This document shows positions 1 through 47,331 of a stretch of 47,331 nucleotides of DNA, one piece after another. The translations under genes were made by a program, and so were the position numbers. The DNA comes from a virus. Its lineage: Duplodnaviria > Heunggongvirae > Uroviricota > Caudoviricetes. The stretch lies in IMG/VR virus record IMGVR_UViG_2778261458_000002; one strand, given 5' to 3'. A model generated the notes under the pieces. That model was not told the origin of the DNA. It saw only the letters and a list, made by a program, of their open reading frames with translations, and made no database searches. Position 1 is the stretch's first letter, and the number at the start of each line of letters is the position of its first letter.

Positions 1-81
1 CCATTTGATCATATGACAAGATGTGTATCCACCTTAACTTAATGATTTTTACCAAAATCATTAGGGGATTCATCAGTACTG

Positions 82-186: not shown

Positions 187-1188
187 GTGTTACGTAAAAC
201 GCTTTTTGATGTTATATATCAGAATGTAAATATTACCGCTCATATGTCACCTGATGTTTTGTCAATGTCTTATACAGATAATGAAGATGGTCAGGTCGAT
301 GATATTTCTATTATATTAAAAAATGATGATGGGAAATGGTCTGGAGACTGGACACCTAAAAAGGGTGATTTTATTGATTTGAGCTTTAAGCCTATAAATC
401 AAATCGTCCTTGAGTGCGGGAAATTCCAGGTAGATGGCATAACTTGCTCTGGACCACCTTCTGTTGTTGAGGTAACTGCTGTTTCTGTTCCTGTTTCATC
501 AGGCATTAGACGTGATTTAAAAAGTAATGCATGGGAAAAAACAACTCTTAAAGATATAGCAACTTCTATAGCTAAATTAGCTAACCTTGAACTGTTGTTT
601 CTTATTGATGGTGATAGTAATCCATATTATGCGCGTGAAGATCAAATGGAGGAAAGCGATTTAAAATTTCTCCATCGACTTTGCCAGGATGAAGGGTTGT
701 CGTTAAAGGTCACTGATAGCCAATTAATAATATTTGCTCAAGAGATGTTTGAGCAAAAAGATCCTATCGCTACGCTTACGTTAGGTATTGATGAGATAAT
801 CAGATATAGCTTTAGCACACAATCTACAGATTTGTATAAAAGTTGCACGTGCAAATATCGCGTACCTAAAAAAAGAAAGTCGCTTTCGTATACTTGGGTA
901 GATCCATCCGTAGAAGAAGGGTCGAATCTTAAGATAAGAAAACTGGTAGCTAATTTAGATGAAGCAAAACGTAAGGCAAAGGCTGCTTTGCGGCTTAAAA
1001 ATAGATATCAAAATACAGGGGCTTTAGTATTGGTTGGAGACACCAGATTGGTAGCTGGTGTAACTATAAATCTGGACGGATTCGGTTCATTTTCTGGAAA
1101 ATATCTTATATCGAAAGCTGTGCATTCAATTGGGGCTAGTGGTTATACCACCTCGATTGATGTCCGAAGAGTAATTAATGGGTATTAA
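187..1188 (+). CDS. tail/baseplate hub protein, late control gene D family (P2 gpD / Mu gp44-like)
   Basis: 333-aa ORF, GTG start 8 nt after GGAG; first gene of a D-V-W-J-I-fibre cluster; family assigned from recalled sequence character and gene order. Confidence 0.65.
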   Translation: MLRKTLFDVIYQNVNITAHMSPDVLSMSYTDNEDGQVDDISIILKNDDGKWSGDWTPKKGDFIDLSFKPINQIVLECGKFQVDGITCSGPPSVVEVTAVSVPVSSGIRRDLKSNAWEKTTLKDIATSIAKLANLELLFLIDGDSNPYYAREDQMEESDLKFLHRLCQDEGLSLKVTDSQLIIFAQEMFEQKDPIATLTLGIDEIIRYSFSTQSTDLYKSCTCKYRVPKKRKSLSYTWVDPSVEEGSNLKIRKLVANLDEAKRKAKAALRLKNRYQNTGALVLVGDTRLVAGVTINLDGFGSFSGKYLISKAVHSIGASGYTTSIDVRRVINGY

Positions 1189-1190
1189 TT

Positions 1191-1811
1191 ATGAATGATT
1201 TAGAAACATTATTACGTCAGACTATAAGAGTTGGCGTTGTTTCTGATATTGATGATGGTGATGTTACAGCAAGAGTTACTTTCGATGATCAGGATAACGT
1301 CACTTCGGCAAAGTTATCAGTTATTGTGAAAAATACGGATAAGAATGCTGATTACTGGATGCCAGATATTGGTGAGCAAGTTTTGTGTATCTTTCATCCC
1401 GCAGGGCCGCAACAAGGTTTTATTCTTGGTAGTTTTTATGATGAAACACAGAAGCCGCCATCTAATACGGTTAATAAACGCGTCATTAGATTTAATAACG
1501 GAACTCGTATTGAGGTAGACAGAGAATCTAATTTACTCCTTGTTGATGCTGTCGGAGATGTAACCGTTAAGGCTACAGGAACCGTAACTATTGATGCTCC
1601 AGAAACCATCATTACCGGAAATGCTACAGTTGAAGGATTACTAACCTTCAAAGGTGGAATGAAAGGATCTTCTGCTGGAGGTGTTGCAGCTACAATTTCT
1701 GGGGATGTTAAGGTTGTTGGTGGTGATATAGATGTTGATGGGATTAAATCTAAAGGCCACCATCACACAGCTCAGGGGGAATACGCTCCGACAACGGAGG
1801 CTCAGGCATGA
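1191..1811 (+). CDS. baseplate assembly protein V-like (central spike)
   Basis: 206-aa ORF starting 2 nt after the gpD-like stop; Gly/Val-rich C-terminal half typical of gpV spikes; position between D-like and W-like genes. Confidence 0.65.
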   Translation: MNDLETLLRQTIRVGVVSDIDDGDVTARVTFDDQDNVTSAKLSVIVKNTDKNADYWMPDIGEQVLCIFHPAGPQQGFILGSFYDETQKPPSNTVNKRVIRFNNGTRIEVDRESNLLLVDAVGDVTVKATGTVTIDAPETIITGNATVEGLLTFKGGMKGSSAGGVAATISGDVKVVGGDIDVDGIKSKGHHHTAQGEYAPTTEAQA

Positions 1812-2275
1812 TTGTGGGTATGCTTGGTACAATGCCTTTTGTTGCCTCATCAATAGTGGTGAATACGTTCAACAATTTTAAAAGGACGTCAAAGCGTCGT
1901 GTAGCGCGCCATGATGTTATTGGGCTTAAACCTGTTCTGGAGGATATAGGTCCAGATCTGGATGAAGTTAGTTTTAATATGCGGTTGGATACAACACTTG
2001 GCATTGTTCCATTGGCTGCGCTTTCATTACTTAGGACAATGCAATCAATTCAGGAAGTAAATCCTGTTGTAATTGGTATTCAGTATTTTGGTAATTTTAT
2101 AATTACAGATATAGAGGAGTCATGGACTTATTTCGGTCCAACTGGAAATCCACGAGTGATTATCGTCGGCATTAAATTACAGGAAGTCGGACAGACCTCT
2201 CTGAAAGAAGCATTAGTTGATATTGCTGGCAATATAGAGTCAAAAACTAGAAGTGCGTTAGGTAAATTATTATGA
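1808..2275 (+). CDS. phage tail protein of uncertain family (possibly P2 gpU-like)
   Basis: 155-aa ORF overlapping neighbours by 4 nt (translational coupling); N-terminal M-x-x-G-M-L-G and RVxRHDVIGxKP resemble gpU-type tail proteins as I recall them; extra gene relative to the V-W-J-I order. Confidence 0.35.
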   Translation: MIVGMLGTMPFVASSIVVNTFNNFKRTSKRRVARHDVIGLKPVLEDIGPDLDEVSFNMRLDTTLGIVPLAALSLLRTMQSIQEVNPVVIGIQYFGNFIITDIEESWTYFGPTGNPRVIIVGIKLQEVGQTSLKEALVDIAGNIESKTRSALGKLL

Positions 2276-2592
2276 ATAATACGTTTACCATATCATCACC
2301 TTCTTACTCGATTGATTGGTCGCCCAAAACAGTTGTAGAAGAAGTTTTGCAAAATGTCTCTACTATTATTAATACTCAGATTGGCACTGTACCATATGCC
2401 AGAAAATTAGGAGTTAATTCAAGTCTTGTTGATAGCCCCAGCCCAATTTTTATTGCTACAGCAACACGAGAAATAATTCAAAAAATTAGTGAGTTTGAGC
2501 CTAGAGCGATTATCCATTCTGTTACTTTTGAAAGAACGGACGTTTCTGATGGTTTTATTAGGCCAAAACTTGTGATAGGAGTTAGAGAATGA
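2272..2592 (+). CDS. baseplate wedge protein gpW / gp25-like
   Basis: 106-aa ORF, size and pattern (conserved EPR, small lysozyme-like fold protein) match gpW/gp25 family; sits directly before J-like gene. Confidence 0.6.
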   Translation: MNNTFTISSPSYSIDWSPKTVVEEVLQNVSTIINTQIGTVPYARKLGVNSSLVDSPSPIFIATATREIIQKISEFEPRAIIHSVTFERTDVSDGFIRPKLVIGVRE

Positions 2593-3713
2593 CGTTGCCG
2601 CGCGGTGGTTTGCCAGATATTACTTTCGCAGATTCTAACCCGACTGATATAACAACTCGTTCAATCAGGGCTTTTGAGAGTATAACAGGTGAAACATTAG
2701 CACCTGCTGATCCACGTAGATTATTCATCTTGTCATTGTGTGAGATTATTATACAGCAAAGAAAAGCTATCGATTTTTCTGCAAAACAAAACCTTCTTAC
2801 ATATGGTGGGGGTGAATATCTCGACCATATAGGCTATCTGACGGATACGCCTAGGCTGGAAGCTCAATCTGCCTTGACTACATTTGAGTTTAAGCTGTCA
2901 ACAAAATTATCGGGGATATATACAATACCTGCTGGCACTCAAATTTCAACTGGAAATAGTGTTATTTTCCAAACAGATGTTTTGTTGGAAATACCAGCTG
3001 GGAAAACAGTTGGTACAGTCTCAGGATATGCTGTTATACCTGGCTTATCGGGGAATGGCTTTTTACCTGGGCAAATAAACGAGTTGGTGACTCCGTTGCC
3101 GTATGTTTCCAGCGTAAGGAATCTAACAACATCTAATTCTGGTGCTGATACAGAGTCAGATGATAATTATGCTGAAAGAATAAAACTGTCGCCGGAAAAA
3201 CTGTCTACAGCAGGGCCGGAGGATTCTTATAAATATTGGACAAGAACAGCCAATCAGAATATAAAAGATGTGAATGTATATACACCATCGCCCGGAACTG
3301 TAGAAATCCGTTCTTTGTTAGAGAACGGAGATATACCTTCTGATGAACTATTAGAGCAGATAAATAGCGTTCTCTCTGCAACTAATATTCGACCATTCAC
3401 AGATAAAGTTCTTGTTAAGAAACCAGAGAGCATTGAATACGATATAATAATTAAATACTGGATTAACTCATCGGACAAAAACAGAACAACTTTAATTCAA
3501 AGTGAGGTTGAGAAAGCTATTGATGAGTATAAACAATGGCAACGTTCGGTTATGGGAAGAGATATAAATCCAGATGAAATTATTCAACGTTTAAAAAATG
3601 CTGGGGCTAAAAGATTAGAAATATCAAGTCCTGTATTTACTGTGGTTGGAGAGACGCAGGTCGCCAGAGAGAGAAATATAAATTGCCAGTATGCGGGGTT
3701 AGAGGATGGCTGA
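2589..3713 (+). CDS. baseplate protein J-like
   Basis: 374-aa ORF coupled (ATGA overlap) to W-like gene and followed by I-like gene; size and position of baseplate J. Confidence 0.65.
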   Translation: MTLPRGGLPDITFADSNPTDITTRSIRAFESITGETLAPADPRRLFILSLCEIIIQQRKAIDFSAKQNLLTYGGGEYLDHIGYLTDTPRLEAQSALTTFEFKLSTKLSGIYTIPAGTQISTGNSVIFQTDVLLEIPAGKTVGTVSGYAVIPGLSGNGFLPGQINELVTPLPYVSSVRNLTTSNSGADTESDDNYAERIKLSPEKLSTAGPEDSYKYWTRTANQNIKDVNVYTPSPGTVEIRSLLENGDIPSDELLEQINSVLSATNIRPFTDKVLVKKPESIEYDIIIKYWINSSDKNRTTLIQSEVEKAIDEYKQWQRSVMGRDINPDEIIQRLKNAGAKRLEISSPVFTVVGETQVARERNINCQYAGLEDG

Positions 3714-4287
3714 TATCTTTAATGTTAGCTTGTTGGATGTTTTACCTCCTAACTTAGCTAGAGATCCCAACGTGATAGCTATGTCGAAAGCTATCGATGA
3801 TGAACTACAAGCAATTAACAATTTAATATATAAGACAGAAATATATAGTGTTGTTGATAACCTGGACTCAGTTGTTCTCGATCATTTAGCTTGGCAATGG
3901 AATGCTGATACATGGAGGGATAGTTGGCCTGTATCGTTAAAGCGTTCTGTTTTTAAATCAATAATACGAACAAAGCGAATAAAGGGTACAAGGGCAGCGG
4001 TTGAAGATGTAGTAAATAGCTTGGGTGGAGAGGTAAATATAACAGAATGGTTTGAAACATCACCACCTGGCGAACCATATACAGCCTCAATTGTTGCTTC
4101 GATTAACTCTTTTGATGGTGGCGTTCCTTCGAAAGAGATGTTGGAAGATACGTTAAGAAGTATCAAGAGCGCAAAGTCGGCAAGAACATTATTTACATTT
4201 TCGCAAGCTGCCAATGTTTCTGGTGGTGTTGGTATTGTTGGTGCTTGTCAGCCTGTGTCCTATGTACGATTAATTGGCGAGTGCTAA
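3706..4287 (+). CDS. tail protein I-like (P2 gpI / Mu gp48 family)
   Basis: 193-aa ORF containing KRIKGTRAAVE and EWFETSPPGEPYT, motifs I recall from gpI-family proteins; immediately upstream of tail fibre. Confidence 0.65.
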   Translation: MADIFNVSLLDVLPPNLARDPNVIAMSKAIDDELQAINNLIYKTEIYSVVDNLDSVVLDHLAWQWNADTWRDSWPVSLKRSVFKSIIRTKRIKGTRAAVEDVVNSLGGEVNITEWFETSPPGEPYTASIVASINSFDGGVPSKEMLEDTLRSIKSAKSARTLFTFSQAANVSGGVGIVGACQPVSYVRLIGEC

Positions 4288-4317
4288 TTCGCAATTTGTT
4301 AATTCAAGGAATTAAGC

Positions 4318-6339
4318 GTGAGTAAATTATTATTTACGATGACTGACGCCGGGCGTCAGGAGTTGGTTAATGCCAACAAAACAGGAACAAATAAAGTTGA
4401 GATTGTTTCTGTTGGTTTAGGTAGTAGATATTATGTCACGTCAACCTCACAAACAAATATAACAGACGAAATAAAACGACTTACCACAATAGGTGGCAAA
4501 GTTGTTTCCCCTGATACAATTCATGTAACGGCGAAGGATGATAGTAAAGATGAGTATGTTGTCCATACAATAGGATTGTATACAAATAAGGGAACGTTGT
4601 TTGCTGTATACTCGCAAGAACAAGCAATAATAAATAAAGCATCATCTACTATTGCTTTAATATCAAGTGACATAGCAATCAAGACTCTTGATACTAAAAA
4701 TATTACATTTGGTGATATTGAGTTTATTAATCCTCCCGCAACCGAAACTGTTGTTGGGGTAGCAAGATTTGCCAATGAACAAGAAATTGATGCAGGTACA
4801 GATGATTCCCTTGCTGTTTCAGCAAAGCGGCTTAAGCAAGCCATTGTGAAACATGAGCAATCACGTAATCATCCCGATGCAACTTTAACCTCAAAAGGCT
4901 TTGTTCAACTTAGCAGCGCCACCAATAGAACGTCTGAAACGCTTGCTGCGACGCCTAAGGCTGTTAAGGCAGCATATGACCTGGCTAATGGCAAATACAC
5001 CGCACAGGACGCTACTACAGCGCGAAAAGGGATTGTTCAGCTCAGTAGTGCCACTAACAGCACGTCTGAAGTGCTGGCCGCCACACCGAAAGCTGTCAAG
5101 GCTGCATATGACCTGGCTAACGGGAAGTATACAGCCCAGGATGCAACCACGGCTCAAAAAGGGATAGTTCAGCTCAGTAGCGACACCAACAGCACTTCTG
5201 AAACATTAGCTGCAACACCAAAAGCGGTTAAAGCTGCATACGATCTAGCAGCCGGAAAGGCACCATCCAGTCATACACATCCCTGGAATCAGATCACTGG
5301 TGTACCAACAGCTTCATTGACAGCGAAAGGCATCACTCAGCTCAGTAGTGCCACTAACAGCACGTCTGAAGTGCTGGCCGCCACACCGAAAGCTGTCAAG
5401 GCTGCATATGACCTGGCTAACGGGAAGTATACAGCCCAGGATGCAACCACGGCTCAAAAAGGGATAGTTCAGCTCAGTAGCGACACCAACAGCACTTCTG
5501 AAACATTAGCTGCAACACCAAAAGCGGTTAAAGCTGCATACGATCTAGCAGCCGGAAAGGCACCATCCAGTCATACACATCCCTGGAATCAGATCACTGG
5601 TGTACCAACAGCTTCATTGACAGCGAAAGGCATCACTCAGCTCAGTAGTGCCACTAACAGCACGTCTGAAGTGCTGGCCGCCACACCGAAAGCTGTCAAG
5701 GCTGCATATGATTTGGCTAATGGAAAGCAAGCGGCAGACGCTACGCTCACTGCTCTAGCGGCACTAGCTACAGCAGCAGATAAACTCCCTTATTTCACAG
5801 GTGTTGATCGTGCCGCGTTAACTGCATTGACAAGTGTTGGACGCGCCATTCTTGGTAAGACCAGTATTCAGAGCGTTCTTGATTACCTTGGTTTGGGAGA
5901 AGGCTCTGCATTACCTGTTGGTGTCCCTGTTCCGTGGCCTTCAGCTACGCCGCCAACAGGCTGGCTGAAATGCAATGGCGCTGCCTTTGATAAGGTTAAA
6001 TATCCCCGTCTTGCTACAGCATATCCATCAGGGAAACTACCTGATCTCCGCGGTGAGTTTATTCGTGGCTGGGATGATGGGCGCGGCATTGATACAGGGC
6101 GTGCTTTATTGAGTATTCAGAGTGATGAAGTCAGAAAGCTCGCATTAAAATACTGGGGGCCAGCTTCAAACAGTTCACCATCAAAAACATTTGCACTCAG
6201 CGACAGTGCCGGTGGCGGGTTGTACACGGATGGAATAAGTCAGGCAAGCGGTGGGATTATCAACGCTTTTCAGCTCCCTGGCGGTAACGAAACCCGCCCA
6301 CGAAATGTTGCATTTAACTATATCGTGAGGGCTGCATAA
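4318..6339 (+). CDS. tail fibre protein with tandem fibre repeats; constant part plus currently expressed variable C-terminal segment (Sv)
   Basis: 673-aa ORF; repeated 40-aa units (GIVQLSSATNSTSEVLAATPKAVKAAYDLA...); C-terminal collar-like receptor-binding domain; the inversion crossover site lies inside the gene at about 5877-5902. Confidence 0.85.
   Translation: MSKLLFTMTDAGRQELVNANKTGTNKVEIVSVGLGSRYYVTSTSQTNITDEIKRLTTIGGKVVSPDTIHVTAKDDSKDEYVVHTIGLYTNKGTLFAVYSQEQAIINKASSTIALISSDIAIKTLDTKNITFGDIEFINPPATETVVGVARFANEQEIDAGTDDSLAVSAKRLKQAIVKHEQSRNHPDATLTSKGFVQLSSATNRTSETLAATPKAVKAAYDLANGKYTAQDATTARKGIVQLSSATNSTSEVLAATPKAVKAAYDLANGKYTAQDATTAQKGIVQLSSDTNSTSETLAATPKAVKAAYDLAAGKAPSSHTHPWNQITGVPTASLTAKGITQLSSATNSTSEVLAATPKAVKAAYDLANGKYTAQDATTAQKGIVQLSSDTNSTSETLAATPKAVKAAYDLAAGKAPSSHTHPWNQITGVPTASLTAKGITQLSSATNSTSEVLAATPKAVKAAYDLANGKQAADATLTALAALATAADKLPYFTGVDRAALTALTSVGRAILGKTSIQSVLDYLGLGEGSALPVGVPVPWPSATPPTGWLKCNGAAFDKVKYPRLATAYPSGKLPDLRGEFIRGWDDGRGIDTGRALLSIQSDEVRKLALKYWGPASNSSPSKTFALSDSAGGGLYTDGISQASGGIINAFQLPGGNETRPRNVAFNYIVRAA
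5041..5711 (+). repeat. perfect 300-bp tandem duplication (2 full copies 5041-5340 and 5341-5640 plus 71-bp third partial copy) inside tail-fibre gene
   Basis: Lines 5041-5340 and 5341-5640 are base-for-base identical; 5641-5711 repeats the first 71 bp; in-frame (100 codons per unit). Confidence 0.9.
5877..5902 (-). other. inversion crossover site (left), Gin/Hin/Cin-type 26-bp site
   Basis: Reverse complement reads TTCTCCCAAACC-AA-GGTAATCAAGAA, resembling hix/gix-type sites; 15-nt core TTGGTTTGGGAGAAG is inverted-repeated at 7736-7750. Confidence 0.55.
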
Positions 6340-6941
6340 TGGATAATGCTGTATTAAATAGCGAGTTTATTGCCACGAAGGCGGGGAATATTACCGTCTA
6401 TAACTATGATAGTGAAACACGGGAATATATTTCCACATCAACTGAATATCTTGCTGTGGGGGTCGGTATTCCAGCATGTTCCTGTCTTGATGCACCTGGC
6501 ATACATAAGGTTGGTTATGCAATCTGTCGTTCTGTGAATTTAAATTCATGGAAATATGTGCCAGACCATCGCGGTGAAATCGTCTATAGCACAGAAACAG
6601 GAGAATCAAAAGAAATCACAGCTCCGGGTGATTACCCTGAAAATACAACCACTATCGCCCCTTTATCTCCATACGATAAATGGGATGGTGAGAAATGGGT
6701 GACCGATACTGAGGCACAGCATAGCGCCGCAGTCGAAGCGGCAGAAGCACAGCGCCAGTCACTGATTGATGCTGCTATGGCTTCCATCAGTCTGATTCAG
6801 CTGAAATTGCAGGCCGGACGTAAACTGACGCAGGCAGAAACAACCCGCCTTAACGCTGTGCTGGATTACATTGACGCGGTGACGGCAACAGATACCAGCA
6901 CCGCGCCGGATGTCATCTGGCCTGAACTGCCGGAGGCGTAG
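6339..6941 (+). CDS. tail fibre assembly protein (Tfa)
   Basis: 200-aa ORF with C-terminal LDYIDAVTATDTSTAPDVIWPELP motif characteristic of Tfa chaperones; start overlaps fibre stop. Confidence 0.75.
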   Translation: MDNAVLNSEFIATKAGNITVYNYDSETREYISTSTEYLAVGVGIPACSCLDAPGIHKVGYAICRSVNLNSWKYVPDHRGEIVYSTETGESKEITAPGDYPENTTTIAPLSPYDKWDGEKWVTDTEAQHSAAVEAAEAQRQSLIDAAMASISLIQLKLQAGRKLTQAETTRLNAVLDYIDAVTATDTSTAPDVIWPELPEA

Positions 6942-7365
6942 GCCATTCAATATCTGGCGCACCGGAAGTATCGACCAGTTCCAGTGCGTCCAGATAATCC
7001 AGCCACAGATTATATTGCGCCAGTTCCTCGCCTTTCAGACGACCAATAGCCGCTTTACCAGGCCATTGTTTACTGTTCATATAATCGTTGGCCTGATTAA
7101 TTAGTAGCTGTCTTTCTGATTCAGTAATTTCAATAAGTTCTTCATGCGTGGGTGGAGGAATATCTGCCCACGCAGGCAGCCCATCACCTCCGGCAATACG
7201 GATTTTTCCTTGTGGCGGTTCAGCCATAAATTCACTGATAATATTTTGATTCACCTCTTTAGCATCTGATAAATCCCATCCCTCTGATTTATATTTATCA
7301 ATCATATCCACAGGGAAAAAAGCATTATGCCTTGCGCTATAAACATATTCGTTCATATAAATCAC
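6913..7365 (-). CDS. alternative tail fibre assembly protein (Tfa')
   Basis: 150-aa minus-strand ORF with the same C-terminal Tfa motif (WLDYLDALELVDTSGAPDIEWPTPP); convergent and 3'-overlapping with tfa. Confidence 0.7.
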   Translation of the reverse strand: MIYMNEYVYSARHNAFFPVDMIDKYKSEGWDLSDAKEVNQNIISEFMAEPPQGKIRIAGGDGLPAWADIPPPTHEELIEITESERQLLINQANDYMNSKQWPGKAAIGRLKGEELAQYNLWLDYLDALELVDTSGAPDIEWPTPPAVQAR

Positions 7366-7376
7366 CCTTAATAAAA

Positions 7377-7745
7377 TTACTCACCAACAGCCCACCAACT
7401 GTAATTCATCGATACTGTGGAACTGGTTGATGCAGTTCTGTAAGCGGAATTAAAACCGGTTAATGTTGGACCTTCTGCGGACATAACGAATCCACGCCCT
7501 GCACCAAAAGGCGCACCGCCATCGCCAGAATGGGTAAGAATGGCGATATCCGCTTTTTTAGGGAAAGGGATAGGAAATGTAATCCTCATTGTTTGCGTCG
7601 ATAATTTCGGCATAGCCTCACCTCGACCATATTGCAGGATTTTCCCGTTGGGTAATTTCATCCATCCATCACCACTGGCAAAAGAGGCCATGTCCGGTAT
7701 CTGATTTTCCCCTGTCCCCACATTCCGTTTTGCCGCTTCTCCCAA
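7377..7745 (-). CDS. alternative tail-fibre C-terminal segment (Sv'), promoterless and start-less in this orientation
   Basis: Minus-strand reading frame runs from the right crossover site to a stop just before tfa'; after inversion it would fuse in frame to the fibre constant part (…DYLGLGE | AAKRNVGTG…). Confidence 0.55.
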
Positions 7746-7762
7746 ACCAACGTTTTAGTCTT
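7737..7762 (+). other. inversion crossover site (right)
   Basis: TTCTCCCAAACC-AA-CGTTTTAGTCTT, inverted copy of the site at 5877-5902, 55 bp upstream of the invertase start. Confidence 0.55.
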
Positions 7763-7816: not shown

Positions 7817-8371
7817 ATGCAAATTGGCTACATTCGTGTGTCAACAAATGACCAAAACACAGATTTACAAAGAAATGCACTGAACTGCGCAGGATGTGAA
7901 CTGATTTTTGAAGATAAAATATCCGGTGCTAAATCAAAACGACCAGGACTTGATAAGCTACTGAAGGTGTTACGACCGGGCGATACGGTTATTGTCTGGA
8001 AGCTGGACCGAATGGGGCGTTCTCTGATTCATCTTGTTGATTTACTTAACCATTTTTTATCAAACGACATTGAGTTTATTTCAATTACGGAAGGGATAAA
8101 AATCAGCACTTCAATTGGCCGCTTTGCCTACACGATGCTGAGTGCAGTCGCAGAGATGGAGCGGGAAAATATGATTGAAAGAACGCGTGCAGGATTGGCG
8201 GTGGCAAGGGCTAACGGCAGGATAGGAGGACGTCGCTCAAAACTGGCACCAGAGCAATGGGAACAGATCGGAAGGCTTATTGCGAATGGTGTTTCACGTA
8301 AGCGGATAGCGATTATCTTCGATGTTACCTTATCCACGCTTTACCGCAGGTTTCCGGCTGGGAATCATTGA
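7817..8371 (+). CDS. DNA invertase, small serine recombinase (Gin/Cin/Pin/Hin family)
   Basis: 184 aa from ATG 7817 (AAAGAGG RBS 9 nt upstream); MQIGYIRVSTNDQNTDLQRNAL with catalytic-Ser motif and C-terminal HTH (GVSRKRIAIIFDVTLSTLYRRF). Confidence 0.9.
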   Translation: MQIGYIRVSTNDQNTDLQRNALNCAGCELIFEDKISGAKSKRPGLDKLLKVLRPGDTVIVWKLDRMGRSLIHLVDLLNHFLSNDIEFISITEGIKISTSIGRFAYTMLSAVAEMERENMIERTRAGLAVARANGRIGGRRSKLAPEQWEQIGRLIANGVSRKRIAIIFDVTLSTLYRRFPAGNH

Positions 8372-8515: not shown

Positions 8516-8559
8516 TTATGATTGTGGGTGTCTGGTTGGAAAGTGACCAGATATGGAAA

Positions 8560-8670
8560 CAAAAAGCCCGCAGATAAATCTGCGGGCTTCTTGCGACATC
8601 CACGGAAAACCAACAACTAACCATGGGCGCCTCGACAACTCCCATTATACGTTGGTTTTCCGTGGACGCA
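8560..8670 (-). ncRNA. candidate countertranscript (CopA/Inc-RNA-like) of the repA leader
   Basis: Minus-strand intrinsic terminator (AGCCCGCAGA-loop-TCTGCGGGCT then TTTTTGTTT, at 8561-8588) and a 16-bp stem (8599-8614 / 8651-8666) just upstream of the repA start; promoter not identified. Confidence 0.3.
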
Positions 8671-8681
8671 AGAGCGAACAT

Positions 8682-9530
8682 ATGGATAGACCAATGCCGT
8701 CTCTACGTTCAGCTTACGTTTGTAATTTGTCGCCGGAGTTCCAGCCTCCAAAGCACCATACGCACAAGCTGCCGCTGGTGTTATCTGATGCTTTACAGCG
8801 CATTAATGGGCGTGATCTTACGTGTGAGGTTGCGTTCTACGTTAATCAACCGTCAGAGCGGAAGCGCCGGATAAACGAGCATCGTCGTCGGGCGATTAAT
8901 GCTGTGATCGCTGCGATTTTGCACCATGTAAACATCATTTCTAAGCGGGTTCTGGCTAGTGCTGAGGCGTTGGCTGATTTTTGCGGCCTGTCTACCGTAT
9001 CCGAAGCTGGGAACAAGTCTATAACGCGCTGTACAAGGGCGTTGTCGCAACTGAAAGCGTTAGGTTTTATTGATTATGAACGTCGCTGGGATCGGGTGAA
9101 TAAACAGTATTGGCCAGCGAAAATAGAGATTCGTGATCAACTGCTGGAAACCGTTGGTATTACTGAACAAGCATGGAGACGTGCGGTTAGCCAGAAACTT
9201 AATTACTTCAATGCGAAGAATAGCGAACGGCTTAAAAAAGCGATAACGGAGGCTGATTATAAGCGTATTGTTATTCAGGAGCAGATGGAGAATGTATGGC
9301 GTCAGAGGAAGACGGCCAGAGAGATAAAGGCAAAACAGAAAGCAGCGGAGAGAGCTGCGCGTCTTGTTCAGGAAAAGGGAGAGGCCGAACTTCGTCATCA
9401 AATCACTAGAGAGGTTAGCCAGGAATTTGCTGATGGCATGTATCCTGGTGCTGACCTTGCATATTTACGATCCCTCGTTGAGCAGCGTTATAACAGGCTA
9501 AGAAAGACCTGGAAATCACTCCAACATTAA
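8682..9530 (+). CDS. repA: plasmid replication initiator RepA (IncFII RepA1-like family)
   Basis: 282 aa from ATG 8682; AGNKSITRCTRALSQLKALGFIDYERRWD and RRRAINAVIAAILHH align with my recollection of R100/R1 RepA1; upstream in-frame extension to 8553 crosses the structured leader and is rejected. Confidence 0.75.
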   Translation: MDRPMPSLRSAYVCNLSPEFQPPKHHTHKLPLVLSDALQRINGRDLTCEVAFYVNQPSERKRRINEHRRRAINAVIAAILHHVNIISKRVLASAEALADFCGLSTVSEAGNKSITRCTRALSQLKALGFIDYERRWDRVNKQYWPAKIEIRDQLLETVGITEQAWRRAVSQKLNYFNAKNSERLKKAITEADYKRIVIQEQMENVWRQRKTAREIKAKQKAAERAARLVQEKGEAELRHQITREVSQEFADGMYPGADLAYLRSLVEQRYNRLRKTWKSLQH

Positions 9531-9599
9531 CTCACCTGAATGATGAATCCGGTTTTACCGGAGGATTATCTACGTCGCAAAAAAATAGCTGTTCAAAAA

Positions 9600-9780
9600 A
9601 CAAGCTAAATTAATTTTCTCTAAACCTGAACTCAGCAAAAATATCGCCTTTACAGGTATCAACTAATCAAGTTATCCACAGTTTTGATATGTATATGCAA
9701 ATGGTTTTTTATAATAGATGCACTAAACAAATAAATGCAAAATCACTTTCTTTTATTAAAACTTTCTTTATTTAACTTAC
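9600..9780. other. probable replication origin: AT-rich region with DnaA box
   Basis: Perfect DnaA box TTATCCACA at 9672-9680 inside an AT-rich stretch directly downstream of repA; followed by three GC-rich hairpins at 9826-9926. Confidence 0.5.
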
Positions 9781-10160
9781 GCAGGCTTTGCCTGTGAATA
9801 TGTTCGCCCTTGCAGCGAGCTAAAGCTCGCGCCGGTTCGAGTCGCTACGCTCAAATATACCTCCTCCGGCACTTGCCGGAGGCATGGAGTAGCCTGATCA
9901 TCCTTTTCGAAACGGCGCGTTTCGAACTATACAAAATCAATTTATATAAGGACGAAATAAGGCCTACGGCCGGGCTTTGCAGGAGGAAGGGGGAGCCTTA
10001 TCAATAAACGTCGATAAATACGCACACAGTAGCCATCAGAACGCGATAAAACGTAAGAAACATCATTTCCTATTAGACATAGAAAAGTTGTCTTATACGC
10101 AATGTAGTAAATTTCTATTGCCACATAGGAAAAGATTTCCTACCATCGTAGATATAATAA

Positions 10161-10460
10161 ATGGAGATGGTTATGGATAAAGATACTGTTTTAAAAATGT
10201 TGAATCCGGCTTGTTTAAAAAAAGCGGATGAATGGGAGTCTCCTACATGTGGAGAAGTTCGGGCAGTCATTGGCCTGACCGGAATGAGCGGCTCGCAGTT
10301 GGCCAAAAAACTTGGCTTAAAAGATAGTCGCAATGTTCGCAATTGGCAGATGTTAAAGGAGTCCACATCCAGATCCAGCATTCCGTATGCAGCCTGGGCG
10401 CTGCTGTGTTACTTCGCTGGGTTAGGGTTAATCTTCATTGATAACAAAACAGATGTTTGA
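10161..10460 (+). CDS. hypothetical protein with possible HTH
   Basis: 99-aa ORF; GLTGMSGSQLAKKLGL helix-turn-helix-like segment; palindromic TTTCCTAT/ATAGGAAA boxes upstream. Confidence 0.4.
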   Translation: MEMVMDKDTVLKMLNPACLKKADEWESPTCGEVRAVIGLTGMSGSQLAKKLGLKDSRNVRNWQMLKESTSRSSIPYAAWALLCYFAGLGLIFIDNKTDV

Positions 10461-19364: not shown

Positions 19365-19501
19365 CCACATTTAGTGGTTTTCACATGGTAAGACGAGAGG
19401 TGGACCACAAATAGAAGGTTATTTTTTGTTTCGCCCATTGAAAAGCTCACGATATGTGGTTTTAATACCACATATCGTGGTTTTAATACCACATATCGTG
19501 G
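19365..19501. promoter_or_regulatory. operator array between divergent repressor and early genes
   Basis: CCACATATCGTGG at 19468-19480 and 19489-19501, inverted variant at 19447-19459 (21-bp spacing), variant CCACATTTAGTGG at 19365-19377. Confidence 0.55.
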
Positions 19502-19521
19502 TTTTAATTGGAGTTCGTTAA

Positions 19522-20016
19522 ATGACCTTTCAGGAGTGGGTTGACGAAAATGGAGGCCAAATTGGTGTTGCCAGAAAGTTTGGCTTTACGTCATCACTGA
19601 TTGGTGCCTGGTATCGCTTCGAGAGATTCCCTCGTGCGGATAACCTGACGCTGCTGGTGGCGTATTCGGAAGGCCGGATTAACGTCCAGCAATGGGCGGC
19701 AGATTTTGCCGAACGTCAGCGCCAGCGTAGCGATGGCACATCGGTTCGGCAGAACAAGATCAAAGGGAATCTCCCTGTTAACTGCTTATCAAGGTTGAAA
19801 GCGGTTTTCTCTGAGCTGGGGATGCCTGCGGAGCGTTGCAATCTACGCGGTCCGCGATTCATTGCTCGCTGGAAACACTCACACGTAACCGTTTCAGAGG
19901 TTCGTGATGCGATTACCGTGCTGGAGCTTAAGAATAAAGATTCCAGCGATATCGAGCTGATTCATAAGGAGATTAGCAACGCCCGGCGTTCAGCACTTGG
20001 GAGGCTTGAGGAATGA
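19522..20016 (+). CDS. early regulatory protein, possibly Cro-like
   Basis: 164-aa ORF divergent from repressor, GGAG RBS; N-terminal GQIGVARKFGFTSSLIGAW HTH-like segment. Confidence 0.35.
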   Translation: MTFQEWVDENGGQIGVARKFGFTSSLIGAWYRFERFPRADNLTLLVAYSEGRINVQQWAADFAERQRQRSDGTSVRQNKIKGNLPVNCLSRLKAVFSELGMPAERCNLRGPRFIARWKHSHVTVSEVRDAITVLELKNKDSSDIELIHKEISNARRSALGRLEE

Positions 20017-47077: not shown

Positions 47078-47179
47078 TAGAACGGTTCAAGGGGACTCAT
47101 GGGATAGTATCGCGTTAAAGTTGTATGGTAATGAGTACCTGTCTTATCTTCTTATTGATGCTAATACTGAGCACTGAGA
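47078..47179 (+). pseudogene. truncated LysM-like tail protein X fragment
   Basis: Frame without start codon encodes RTVQGDSWDSIALKLYGNEYLSYLLIDAN then stop, resembling the N-terminal half of P2 gpX; an ATG at 47071 is in a different frame. Confidence 0.25.
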
Positions 47180-47331
47180 GATCCCCTCATAATTTCCCCA
47201 AAGCGTAACCATGTGTGAATAAATTTTGAGCTAGTAGGGTTGCAGCCACGAGTAAGTCTTCCCTTGTTATTGTGTAGCCAGAATGCCGCAAAACTTCCAT
47301 GCCTAAGCGAACTGTTGAGAGTACGTTTCGA

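Follow-up and report, generated by a model that had tools for sequence, protein, structure and literature searches.

The window, a stretch of 47,331 nucleotides, is the entire contig NTNJ01000033.1 (47,332 bp) of the draft E. coli WGS assembly GCA_002463995.1, and the element that it represents is a phage-plasmid of roughly 47 kb whose contractile tail is of the P2/Mu type and whose RepA is of the IncFII type. Its tail module was delineated by the Pfam domains Baseplate_J (2589-3713), Tail_P2_I (3706-4287) and Caudo_TAP (6339-6941), and contains a tail-fibre gene whose exact 673-aa product is present in NCBI. The protein begins with an N-terminal part for baseplate attachment, continues with six Phage_fiber_2 repeats and a linker, and finishes in a collar/receptor-binding tip. 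The gene and the repeats relevant here are located as listed below.

4318..6339, plus strand: tail-fibre gene, an open reading frame of 673 aa (WP_096932419.1)
4897..5028, plus strand: R1, an older diverged 44-aa Phage_fiber_2 repeat belonging to the element's own backbone, inside the 318-5111 block
5037..5336, plus strand: unit copy 1, composed of a 75-nt core A and a 225-nt part B
5337..5636, plus strand: unit copy 2, identical to copy 1
5637..5711, plus strand: partial third copy, the 75-nt core A only, with the linker and then the inversion crossover site downstream

Phage_fiber_2 (PF03406) was detected in six stretches of the protein with 374.2 bits against a cut-off of 22, together with the Collar and Phage_tail_fib N-terminal domains; both the Pfam score and the location in the tail module identify the gene as a repeat fibre of this family, in agreement with an earlier note on this DNA that had placed the duplication in a tail-fibre repeat region. 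The fibre tip matches T4 gp37 (2xgf) and a short tail fibre (9cuy), and one of the repeats aligns with residues 107-152 of the Mu tail fibre S (5yvq).

The same note had reported that positions 5041-5340 and 5341-5640 agree at every base and that 5641-5711 repeats the first 71 nt. This proved correct, and extension of the period-300 identity in both directions set the true limits at 5037-5711, i.e. 675 nt or 2.25 copies with 0 mismatches. The array can equally be described as a 375-nt perfect self-match (5037-5411 and 5337-5711), and chance cannot account for such a match at one constant offset. Tandem Repeats Finder delimited it as 5037-5727 (period 300, 2.3 copies, 98% matches, zero indels), and reported a second array of period 132 at 4893-5240 with 78% matches. 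The array lies inside the open reading frame 4318-6339 and 300 nt correspond to 100 codons, as had been claimed; with its head-to-tail copies and a unit length divisible by three, it is a coding VNTR in its layout. Each 300-nt unit codes for two Phage_fiber_2 repeats of 44 aa and 56 aa, the latter containing the motif SSHTHPW. The adjoining older repeats are indeed diverged: R1 (4897-5028) and R2 (5029-5160) share 76.5% nucleotide and 90.9% amino acid identity, their codon differences being 26 synonymous and 4 non-synonymous.

Downstream of the array, the following features were identified.

5885..5902: left crossover site, cix/gix-like, an 18-nt inverted repeat 94% complementary with 7736-7753
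6339..6941, plus strand: tail-fibre assembly chaperone of the currently expressed tip (Pfam Caudo_TAP, 5e-33)
6913..7356, minus strand: alternative chaperone (Pfam Caudo_TAP; gene call)
7377..7745, minus strand: alternative fibre tip (Pfam Gp53-like_C; gene call)
7736..7753: right crossover site, the partner of 5885-5902
7817..8371 (alternative start 7808), plus strand: serine DNA invertase of the Cin/Gin/Hin type (Pfam Resolvase and HTH_7)

The neighbouring invertase and the pair of inverted sites, one of which lies inside the fibre gene, point to an invertible tip system of the Cin/Gin/Min type. The left crossover site is located 174 nt downstream of the array; since the array is upstream of this site, it belongs to the constant part of the fibre gene. 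Since the invertase gene and the crossover sites are 200 nt to 2 kb away from the array, copy number could conceivably be switched in a programmed manner, with the enzyme acting on cryptic crossover sites within the units, but we find such a scheme hardly credible. The best match of the array to the 18-nt crossover core is 10/18, which is below the 11-12/18 typical of random 675-nt windows of the same contig; the unit boundaries provide long homology that is sufficient for RecA-type recombination or slippage; and the array also varies in the context of a chromosomal lambdoid fibre gene (locus L009). In the absence of a crossover-like site from the array, the invertase-mediated mechanism was rejected.

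Comparison with related elements divided the fibre gene into three modules: the backbone to about 5049, the P1-like array and linker to about 5925, and then a P2-like invertible tip. The segment 318-5111 is 98.4-98.8% identical to the Yersinia phages vB_YpM_39/41 and pGF31-D, the segment 5037-5925 is 97.3% identical to locus L005, the segment 5337-5894 is 98.9% identical to locus L018, and the segment 5884-7750 is 97.6% identical to a P2 of O157:H43 T22. At base level, the backbone switches to P1-like sequence at about 5049, and the GC content at this junction rises from 39.8% to 51.4%. The expansion read by the earlier note need not have taken place in this element: the array starts, on its left, where the backbone and the P1-like module recombined (about 5037-5049), and a P1-like element (L020) has a near-identical unit that differs by 1 nt and carries the same G/T variants at unit positions 112 and 114. 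The use of these two variants as 'private' proof of an in-place duplication was rejected, because L020 has them too. At unit positions 21 and 27, copy 1 of the window has C and T, the 'internal copy' type, and the first copies of L002, L004 and L005 have T and C. The array was probably imported from elsewhere rather than necessarily duplicated in place, and a multi-copy array may have arrived ready-made.

The chimeric allele is represented by one version with one protein sequence (2 contigs, 3 samples), the copy-number variation described below being that of P1-like alleles. Exact-pattern scans for the chimeric backbone/P1-like junction gave zero matches in IMG/VR, the GTDB species-representative genomes and the JGI metagenomes, and no independently assembled version of this allele with a different copy number came to light. 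The chimeric gene was likewise absent from every record of the three collections used in the sequence comparisons, and the fibre protein was a singleton in a cluster look-up.

The unit itself is not confined to this element. Its full length is present, with 95-99% identity, in 184 of the 5426 complete E. coli genomes, and all unit matches were distributed between plasmids (890) and chromosomes (193). In P1-like E. coli phage-plasmids of about 95 kb, the unit is 97-99.7% identical and resides in the tail-fibre gene, where the arrays close with a matching partial copy of 75-81 nt; in the chromosomal locus L009, it resides in a lambdoid Stf-type fibre gene (97.3% identity). Only two records of the phage collection match the unit at megablast level, both of them P1-like isolates (Punavirus), one with 5.3 copies and the other with a longer irregular array. 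The record of the 'complete' plasmid pUSDA5905_1 terminates within the repeat.

Relatives were to be compared for copy-number variation according to the earlier note, and such variation was found: complete P1-like plasmids have 1, 2, 3 or 5 copies. Counted as full units in complete or near-complete records, one unit is present in L007, L008, L038 and the chromosomal L009; two units in L031, L036, L037 and L017; three units in L032 and L033; and five units in L002, L004, L005, L034 and L035. The upstream 1.5 kb is nevertheless 99.8-100% identical in 11 of the 13 loci compared, despite their 1, 2, 3 or 5 copies, the exceptions being L008 (about 99%) and L036 (without a gap-free alignment). Near-identical flanks combined with differing copy numbers imply that copy number changes faster than point mutations accumulate. 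In addition, one variant copy occupies position 3 in L004 and position 4 in L005. Copy number therefore differs among otherwise near-identical P1-like alleles, as expected of a VNTR.

The number of copies reported for the window has to be considered together with the nature of the assembly, for which the two contig ends are informative.

1..76, minus strand: end of an IS10 (ISVsa5) inside which the contig starts, an exact match to the IS10 end in Tn10 of R100
47174..47331, minus strand: the other end of the same IS10, inside which the contig stops, a 100% match to the annotated ISVsa5 transposase region of 1166 plasmids

Both IS10 parts have the same orientation, and the distance that they cover in R100 is 1328 nt. 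A target duplication of 9 bp, TACTGAGCA, is found at 47165-47173 and 77-85, and collinearity with pE1-5 extends across the ends of the contig. Judging from these ends, the source replicon is circular and the contig was broken within one 1.3-kb IS10. The location of both ends in one IS10, together with the draft status, suggests a short-read assembly. In a word-content test, arrays of 2.25, 3.25 and 5.25 copies were identical for k of 31-376, whereas 1.25 and 2.25 copies differed for k of 77 or more. Because words of 77-376 nt do not separate 2.25 copies from any higher number, the figure of 2.25 represents a minimum; two full units or more are real, and the exact number is not fixed by the contig.

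These data allow three readings of the reported copy number to be weighed. In the first, the assembly is collapsed: the real plasmid has at least 3 units, and the assembler went round the 300-nt loop no more often than it had to. Two marks of a collapsed repeat are seen here, in that repeats beyond read length were left unspanned and the reported copies are the minimum that accounts for all words. The break of the draft contig in the 1.3-kb IS10 shows that repeats exceeding the read length were unresolved, and 2.25 copies form the shortest sequence with all 77-376-nt words of longer perfect arrays. Other draft contigs break at the same repeat: 12 of the 18 IMG/VR contigs with a unit junction end 60-521 nt from that junction, and a protein search with the unit returned mostly 'partial' fibre proteins, many of them on contigs under 1 kb. 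Among complete records, 3 and 5 copies are found as often as 2. However, paired-end information is able to resolve a 675-nt array, and complete records with two-copy arrays exist (L031, L036, L017). Collapse is a serious possibility that falls short of an even chance.

In the second reading, which takes up the main view of the earlier note, the contig is exact, and its 2.25 copies result from one recent duplication after a 1.25-copy P1-like allele had entered the lineage. That the copies match perfectly across 675 nt agrees with this, as do the 1- and 2-unit arrays among the complete P1-like records and the fact that the assembler gave two passes of the loop in an unbroken contig. The identity of the copies is, however, uninformative if the array collapsed, and the donor lineage commonly has multi-copy arrays with identical internal copies; moreover, the 'internal copy' variants of copy 1 fit a crossover into the interior of a multi-copy donor array. 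We consider this sequence of events rather doubtful. For the same reasons, the 'very recent expansion' that the earlier note read from the identity of the copies is not sustained: perfect identity is a poor guide to age, a collapsed array gives identical copies at any age, and identical internal copies, 3-4 in number, are seen in complete P1-like records as well.

The third reading, an artefactual expansion in which the true number is 1.25 and the assembler created the second unit by mistake, is very improbable. Although single-unit alleles are frequent (L007, L008, L038, L009 and five IMG/VR contigs), unit-core-unit words of 77 nt or more require at least 2.25 copies, a de Bruijn assembler without such words has no path for a second pass, and the identical 673-aa protein was obtained on 2 contigs from 3 samples. 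The earlier caveat about an assembly artefact is consequently upheld and reinforced with regard to collapse, given the draft contig and the same word content for more copies, and not with regard to a spurious expansion, which is unlikely.

Taken together, we regard the array, with a probability of about 0.7, as a real recombination-driven coding VNTR of P1-like origin that lies in the constant, shaft-encoding part of a tail-fibre gene with an invertible tip, its 2.25 copies being a lower bound. Every unit opens with the 75-nt core, which is found once more past the last unit, and this anatomy suggests that out-of-register homologous recombination or replication slippage would add or remove whole 100-codon units with the frame kept; the likely cause is unequal homologous recombination from one unit to another. 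Both the unit and its tandem layout derive from the tail-fibre gene of P1-like phage-plasmids, and comparison shows that a crossover in the conserved core, at about 5037-5049, fused the P1-like array to the N-terminal part of the element; a second junction near 5885-5925 connects the array region to the P2-like invertible tip segment. The array is an ordinary fast-changing length polymorphism, and no evidence for a new mechanism was found in this analysis; a search for Chi sites as a local recombination hotspot found zero in or near the fibre gene. In the predicted trimeric shaft, each unit would account for about 100 more residues per chain, and it is plausible that extra units lengthen the fibre shaft. 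An AlphaFold2 monomer model of aa 186-480 was all-helix with a mean pLDDT of 37.9, a low-confidence output that was discarded.

Several known systems resemble the locus in part. In P1-like phage-plasmids (Punavirus; about 95-kb IncY-type elements such as pMTY1886, p1303_95 and pSBF22b), an S-type fibre gene is located downstream of R. The fibre gene of the window shares with it the 300-nt unit at 97-99.7% identity, the tandem layout, the terminal partial copy of 75-81 nt, the position of the array upstream of an invertase crossover site, and the type of linker and tip; the P1-like locus L002 aligns to 5037-7219 of the window at 89.6%. In contrast to the P1-like elements, the first 240 aa of the fibre and all of the virion module belong to a 47-kb phage-plasmid unrelated to them, whose baseplate is of the P2/Mu type. 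Mosaic fibre genes (lambda Stf, P2 H, Mu S and P1) with shared repeat motifs and horizontal exchange of segments were reportedly described by Haggard-Ljungquist 1992 and Sandmeier 1994. As in those mosaics, Phage_fiber_2 repeats form the module junctions, here between three modules of three phage types; the lambda/P2/Mu/P1 mosaics concern segment exchange, whereas the variation here is a population-level change in the copy number of a perfect 100-codon unit.

Pf2 was originally recognised in lambda Stf (PMC3368898). The side-tail-fibre-like proteins of EHEC prophages have collagen-like and coiled-coil domains that vary in length (PMC3368898), and they are similar to the present fibre in having Pf2 domains and rod-like parts that differ by whole repeat periods; however, these periods are of 3 and 7 residues, compared with 100 residues built of Pf2 repeats here. 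For the distal tail-fibre locus of T-even phages, recombination at conserved His boxes has been described (Tetart, Desplats and Krisch 1998, cited as ref 25 in PMC10879196). The likeness lies in short conserved fibre motifs serving as crossover points, here the H-x-H of SSHTHPW in the 56-aa repeat, and the difference in that the T-even system involves another protein family and phage group and swaps adhesin tips with the shaft length unchanged. No description of copy-number polymorphism in P1-like fibre repeats was found in the open-access papers searched.

For genome annotation, the length of this fibre gene as taken from short-read assemblies is untrustworthy, and the repeat often breaks draft contigs. 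The conserved cores of fibre repeats may have two roles, as crossover points for module swaps between unrelated phages and as substrates for changes in shaft length. We also put forward as speculation, and as unlikely on present evidence, that the 100-codon unit is a mobile 'length cassette' among unrelated temperate phages (P1-like, lambdoid and P2/Mu-type), whose rapid gain and loss would tune the reach of the fibre to the thickness of the O-antigen or capsule. If so, it would constitute a second, quantitative axis of host range beside the invertase tip switch in the same gene. Should the number of units influence adsorption, it would offer an easily engineered means of adjusting delivery vectors based on P1 and P2.

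The 300-nt repeat array of the tail-fibre gene is a genuine coding tandem repeat, ordinary and of a known kind, and lies in a mosaic fibre gene. Its ORF (4318-6339, + strand, 673 aa) is identified by its sequence matches as a tail-fibre gene: in Pfam the product matches Phage_fiber_2 in six stretches (374 bits), has a Collar domain towards its C-terminus and gives a weak tail-collar-fibre hit at its N-terminus; the C-terminal part aligns with the T4 gp37 tip (2xgf) and the short tail fibre (9cuy), and one repeat aligns with residues 107-152 of the Mu tail fibre S (5yvq). The gene and its neighbours are arranged as follows.

Fibre locus and adjoining genes
2589-3713, Baseplate_J, upstream of the fibre gene
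3706-4287, Tail_P2_I, upstream of the fibre gene
4897-5028, repeat R1 (44 aa)
5029-5160, repeat R2 (44 aa)
5161-5328, repeat R3 (56 aa, contains SSHTHPW)
5329-5460, repeat R4
5461-5628, repeat R5
5629-5727, repeat R6
5885-5902 and 7736-7753, cix/gix-like crossover sites of the tip segment, an 18-nt inverted repeat, 94% complementary
6339-6941, fibre chaperone, downstream of the fibre gene
6913-7356, second chaperone, opposite strand
7377-7745, alternative gp53-like fibre tip, opposite strand
7817-8371, serine invertase
8553-9530, RepA, IncFII-type

The invertible tip segment (5885-7753) carries the two chaperone genes and the alternative gp53-like tip, with the serine invertase at 7817-8371. 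The nearer crossover site is 174 nt downstream of the array, which therefore belongs to the constant part of the invertible fibre gene.

As the earlier note had described, 5041-5340 recurs unchanged at 5341-5640, whose first 71 nt come once more at 5641-5711; once the comparison is extended, perfect period-300 identity spans 5037-5711 (675 nt, 2.25 copies), and 5037-5411 matches 5337-5711 in a perfect 375-nt self-match that at a fixed offset far exceeds chance. Tandem Repeats Finder reports a main array at 5037-5727 (period 300, 2.3 copies, no indels) and an overlapping older one at 4893-5240 (period 132, 78% matches). Since 300 nt equals 100 codons, the reading frame is kept, and the array is, as proposed, an in-frame 100-codon tandem repeat of a tail-fibre gene. 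One unit corresponds to R2 plus R3; a common 75-nt core opens each perfect unit and recurs after the last, giving the form A-B-A-B-A, in which A is 75 nt and B 225 nt. The older repeats were rightly called diverged, being only 71-77% identical pairwise in DNA and 88-91% in protein, and R1 and R2 differ by 26 synonymous and 4 non-synonymous codons; on these substitutions they are read as ancient copies under purifying selection.

The contig derives from a circular phage-plasmid. Plasmid pE1-5 of E. coli, a circle of 47,289 bp, is collinear with the entire window and across the window's two ends at 96-99% identity; the genes of pE1-5 include those for terminase, portal, capsid, sheath-type tail, holin and lysis, alongside RepA and ParA. 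A single IS10 (ISVsa5) supplies both termini of the window, one of its ends forming the first 76 nt (1-76) and the other the last 157-158 nt (47174-47331); their orientations agree, and a 9-bp target duplication, TACTGAGCA, flanks them at 47165-47173 and 77-85. The matching ends span 1328 nt in Tn10 of R100, and the contig lacks the central part of the IS (about 1.1 kb). The insertion point falls between the tape-measure and gpD-like genes. Breakage of a circular replicon within a 1.3-kb insertion sequence present in several copies is the pattern expected of short-read assembly, which we infer as the source of the contig. The 673-aa fibre protein is identical to WP_096932419.1 (E. coli). The contig that encodes it, NTNJ01000033.1 (47,332 bp) of the draft assembly GCA_002463995.1, corresponds to the window read in reverse; this protein is a singleton at 90% clustering and is present on 2 contigs from 3 samples.

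The exact copy number in the contig is unreliable and should be read as 2.25 or more. Simulated loci carrying 1, 2, 3 or 5 full units were compared by word content at word lengths of 77-376 nt: the word sets of the 2.25-, 3.25- and 5.25-copy versions were exactly equal, and the 1.25-copy version lacked the words that bridge two successive units across the core. Barring chimeric reads, at least 2.25 copies are therefore real, and 2.25, the shortest sequence fitting any longer perfect array, is a lower bound. Of the assembly artefacts suggested earlier, collapse is a real concern, and spurious expansion from 1.25 copies is unlikely. A collapsed array of any age is the same graph path written twice, so the identity of the copies is no evidence of recency, and the recent expansion put forward earlier is not demonstrated. 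Assembly trouble at the repeat also fits the IMG/VR contigs with a unit junction, 12 of 18 of which end 60-521 nt from it, and a protein database rich in 'partial' fibre fragments from 0.5-1 kb contigs. Within a 'complete genome' assembly, the record of plasmid pUSDA5905_1 (NZ_CP039843.1) is linear, with one end inside the repeat array.

Of 5426 complete E. coli genomes, 184 contain the full unit (95-99% identity), and all unit matches together comprise 890 plasmid-borne and 193 chromosomal places. Most carriers are P1-like plasmids of about 95 kb, in which the fibre gene with the unit is preceded by the R-type gene and followed by a multi-tip invertible region.

Full units per locus, counted without gaps
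1 unit: p886Rt_IncY, pMB5646_3, pNORD58_2 and a chromosomal lambdoid Stf-type gene of strain MB98
2 units: p1303_95, p1_000533, pUSDA5905_1 and the IMG/VR locus L017
3 units: pSBF22b and pAVS0973-B
5 units: pMTY1886, AR_0372 unnamed4, SCAID unnamed2, 2020N21-110-24 unnamed3 and pSJ_98 (irregular 468-nt spacings)

The comparison with related elements that had been proposed thus gave copy numbers of 1, 2, 3 and 5 among P1-like loci with near-identical flanks: the 1.5-kb upstream flank is 99.8-100% identical in 11 of 13 compared loci with 1, 2, 3 or 5 copies, the exceptions being L008 (about 99%) and L036 (without a gapless alignment), and between p1303_95 (2 copies) and AR_0372 (5 copies) the 250 nt downstream are also 99.6% identical. 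The copy with three marker substitutions is the third in AR_0372 and the fourth in the SCAID plasmid. Judged from these alleles, copy number and order vary at the population level, and both change faster than point substitutions accumulate. Identical internal copies occur in complete records as well (four in pMTY1886, three in pAVS0973-B).

Of two Punavirus phage records, one has 5.3 copies and the other a longer irregular array mixing 132- and 168-nt sub-repeats. Irregular P1-like arrays lie at about 5000-7220 in the locus of Escherichia phage vB_EcoM-813R1 and at 3265-5100 in that of pSJ_98; their 168- and 132-nt units follow other orders, with periods of 168, 299/300 and 467/468, so recombination occurs between sub-repeats too, and not between whole 300-nt units alone. 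The period of 299 and the fragmented fibre genes in the two phage records suggest uncorrected long-read indels. The AR_0372 and SCAID plasmids have a second, frameshifted fibre gene copy a few kb downstream (9185-10300 of each locus), which inflates match counts per record. The MB98 chromosome (NZ_CP073926.1) holds one unit, 97.3% identical, at 5001-5300 of its locus, in a lambdoid prophage side-tail-fibre gene adjoined by Lom and TipJ genes; the unit thus circulates among at least three unrelated tail types.

The fibre locus is composed of three modules. Backbone homology to Yersinia phages vB_YpM_39 and vB_YpM_41 (49 kb), pGF31-D and pE1-5 runs from 77 or 318 to about 5049, window 318-5111 being common to the two phages and pGF31-D at 98.4-98.8%. 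At base level, vB_YpM_41 is tracked up to '...TCAGCTCAGTAG' and P1-like sequence thereafter, so the left edge of the perfect array coincides with the junction, exactly where GC content steps from 39.8% (4318-5036) to 51.4% (5037-5711). P1-like homology extends from 5037 to about 5925 (97.3% to SCAID unnamed2), and 5337-5894 is 98.9% identical to another P1-like locus (L018). Window 5884-7750 matches the invertible segment of a P2 prophage of E. coli O157:H43 T22 at 97.6% identity (99.8% over 5884-6339), which makes the invertible tip a third, P2-derived module. The chimeric gene was not found in phage, plasmid or complete E. coli collections (best coverage 68%), nor was the backbone/P1-like junction in IMG/VR, GTDB representative genomes or JGI metagenomes.

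At unit positions 21 and 27 the first copy in the window has the 'internal copy' variants. The unit's G/T bases at positions 112 and 114, initially taken as private to the window, also occur in the P1-like IMG/VR locus L020, whose unit is 1 nt different. From these sequence comparisons, the simplest history would be a crossover in the conserved core that joined the second repeat of the element itself to an internal unit of a P1-like array. Such a crossover would have imported however many units stood downstream in the donor array; in-place duplication afterwards is possible and not required. In the aligned loci, module junctions fall in the same 75-nt core, whose homology may let unrelated phages swap fibre parts. 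Whole units may be gained or lost when sister or co-resident copies undergo unequal homologous recombination, or by replication slippage. Invertase-driven copy change was considered and rejected, the best array match to the 18-nt crossover core being 10/18, under the usual best in random contig windows.

Exchange of fibre segments at conserved motifs is classic in lambda, P2, Mu, P1 and T-even phages, and was reportedly described by Haggard-Ljungquist in 1992 and Sandmeier in 1994. T-even fibre exchange is attributed to Tetart et al. 1998 in PMC10879196. Pf2 was first noted in lambda Stf, and the rod-like domains of prophage fibre-like proteins vary in length (PMC3368898); invertase tip-switching is textbook knowledge, also for P1-like plasmids (PMC6906374). 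Searches of an open-access library found no description of the 100-codon copy-number polymorphism, and such an absence is weak evidence.

Each unit is predicted to add 100 residues per chain to the length of the trimeric shaft. The dimensions of the T4 long fibre correspond to roughly 0.05-0.06 nm per residue, from which the gain per unit would be about 5-6 nm. An AlphaFold monomer model of the repeat region was unusable (pLDDT 37.9). The H-x-H motif of each 56-aa repeat presumably resembles the metal-binding His motifs of T4 gp37.

No Chi sites occur in or near the fibre gene. Thirteen (GCTGGTGG) lie within 13164-34587, 13 on the + strand and 0 on the - strand, against 1.13 (sd 1.08) expected from shuffles and with 13 reached in 0 of 100 shuffles; in the phage-plasmid's early/replication and lysis region Chi is thus strongly enriched, in one orientation. 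At 19452-19508, ahead of an ORF that begins near 19523, 2.8 intergenic tandem copies of a 21-nt unit with the palindrome GTGGTTTTAATACCAC are placed like the divergent repressor/early-operon region of pE1-5, and are probably operator sites.
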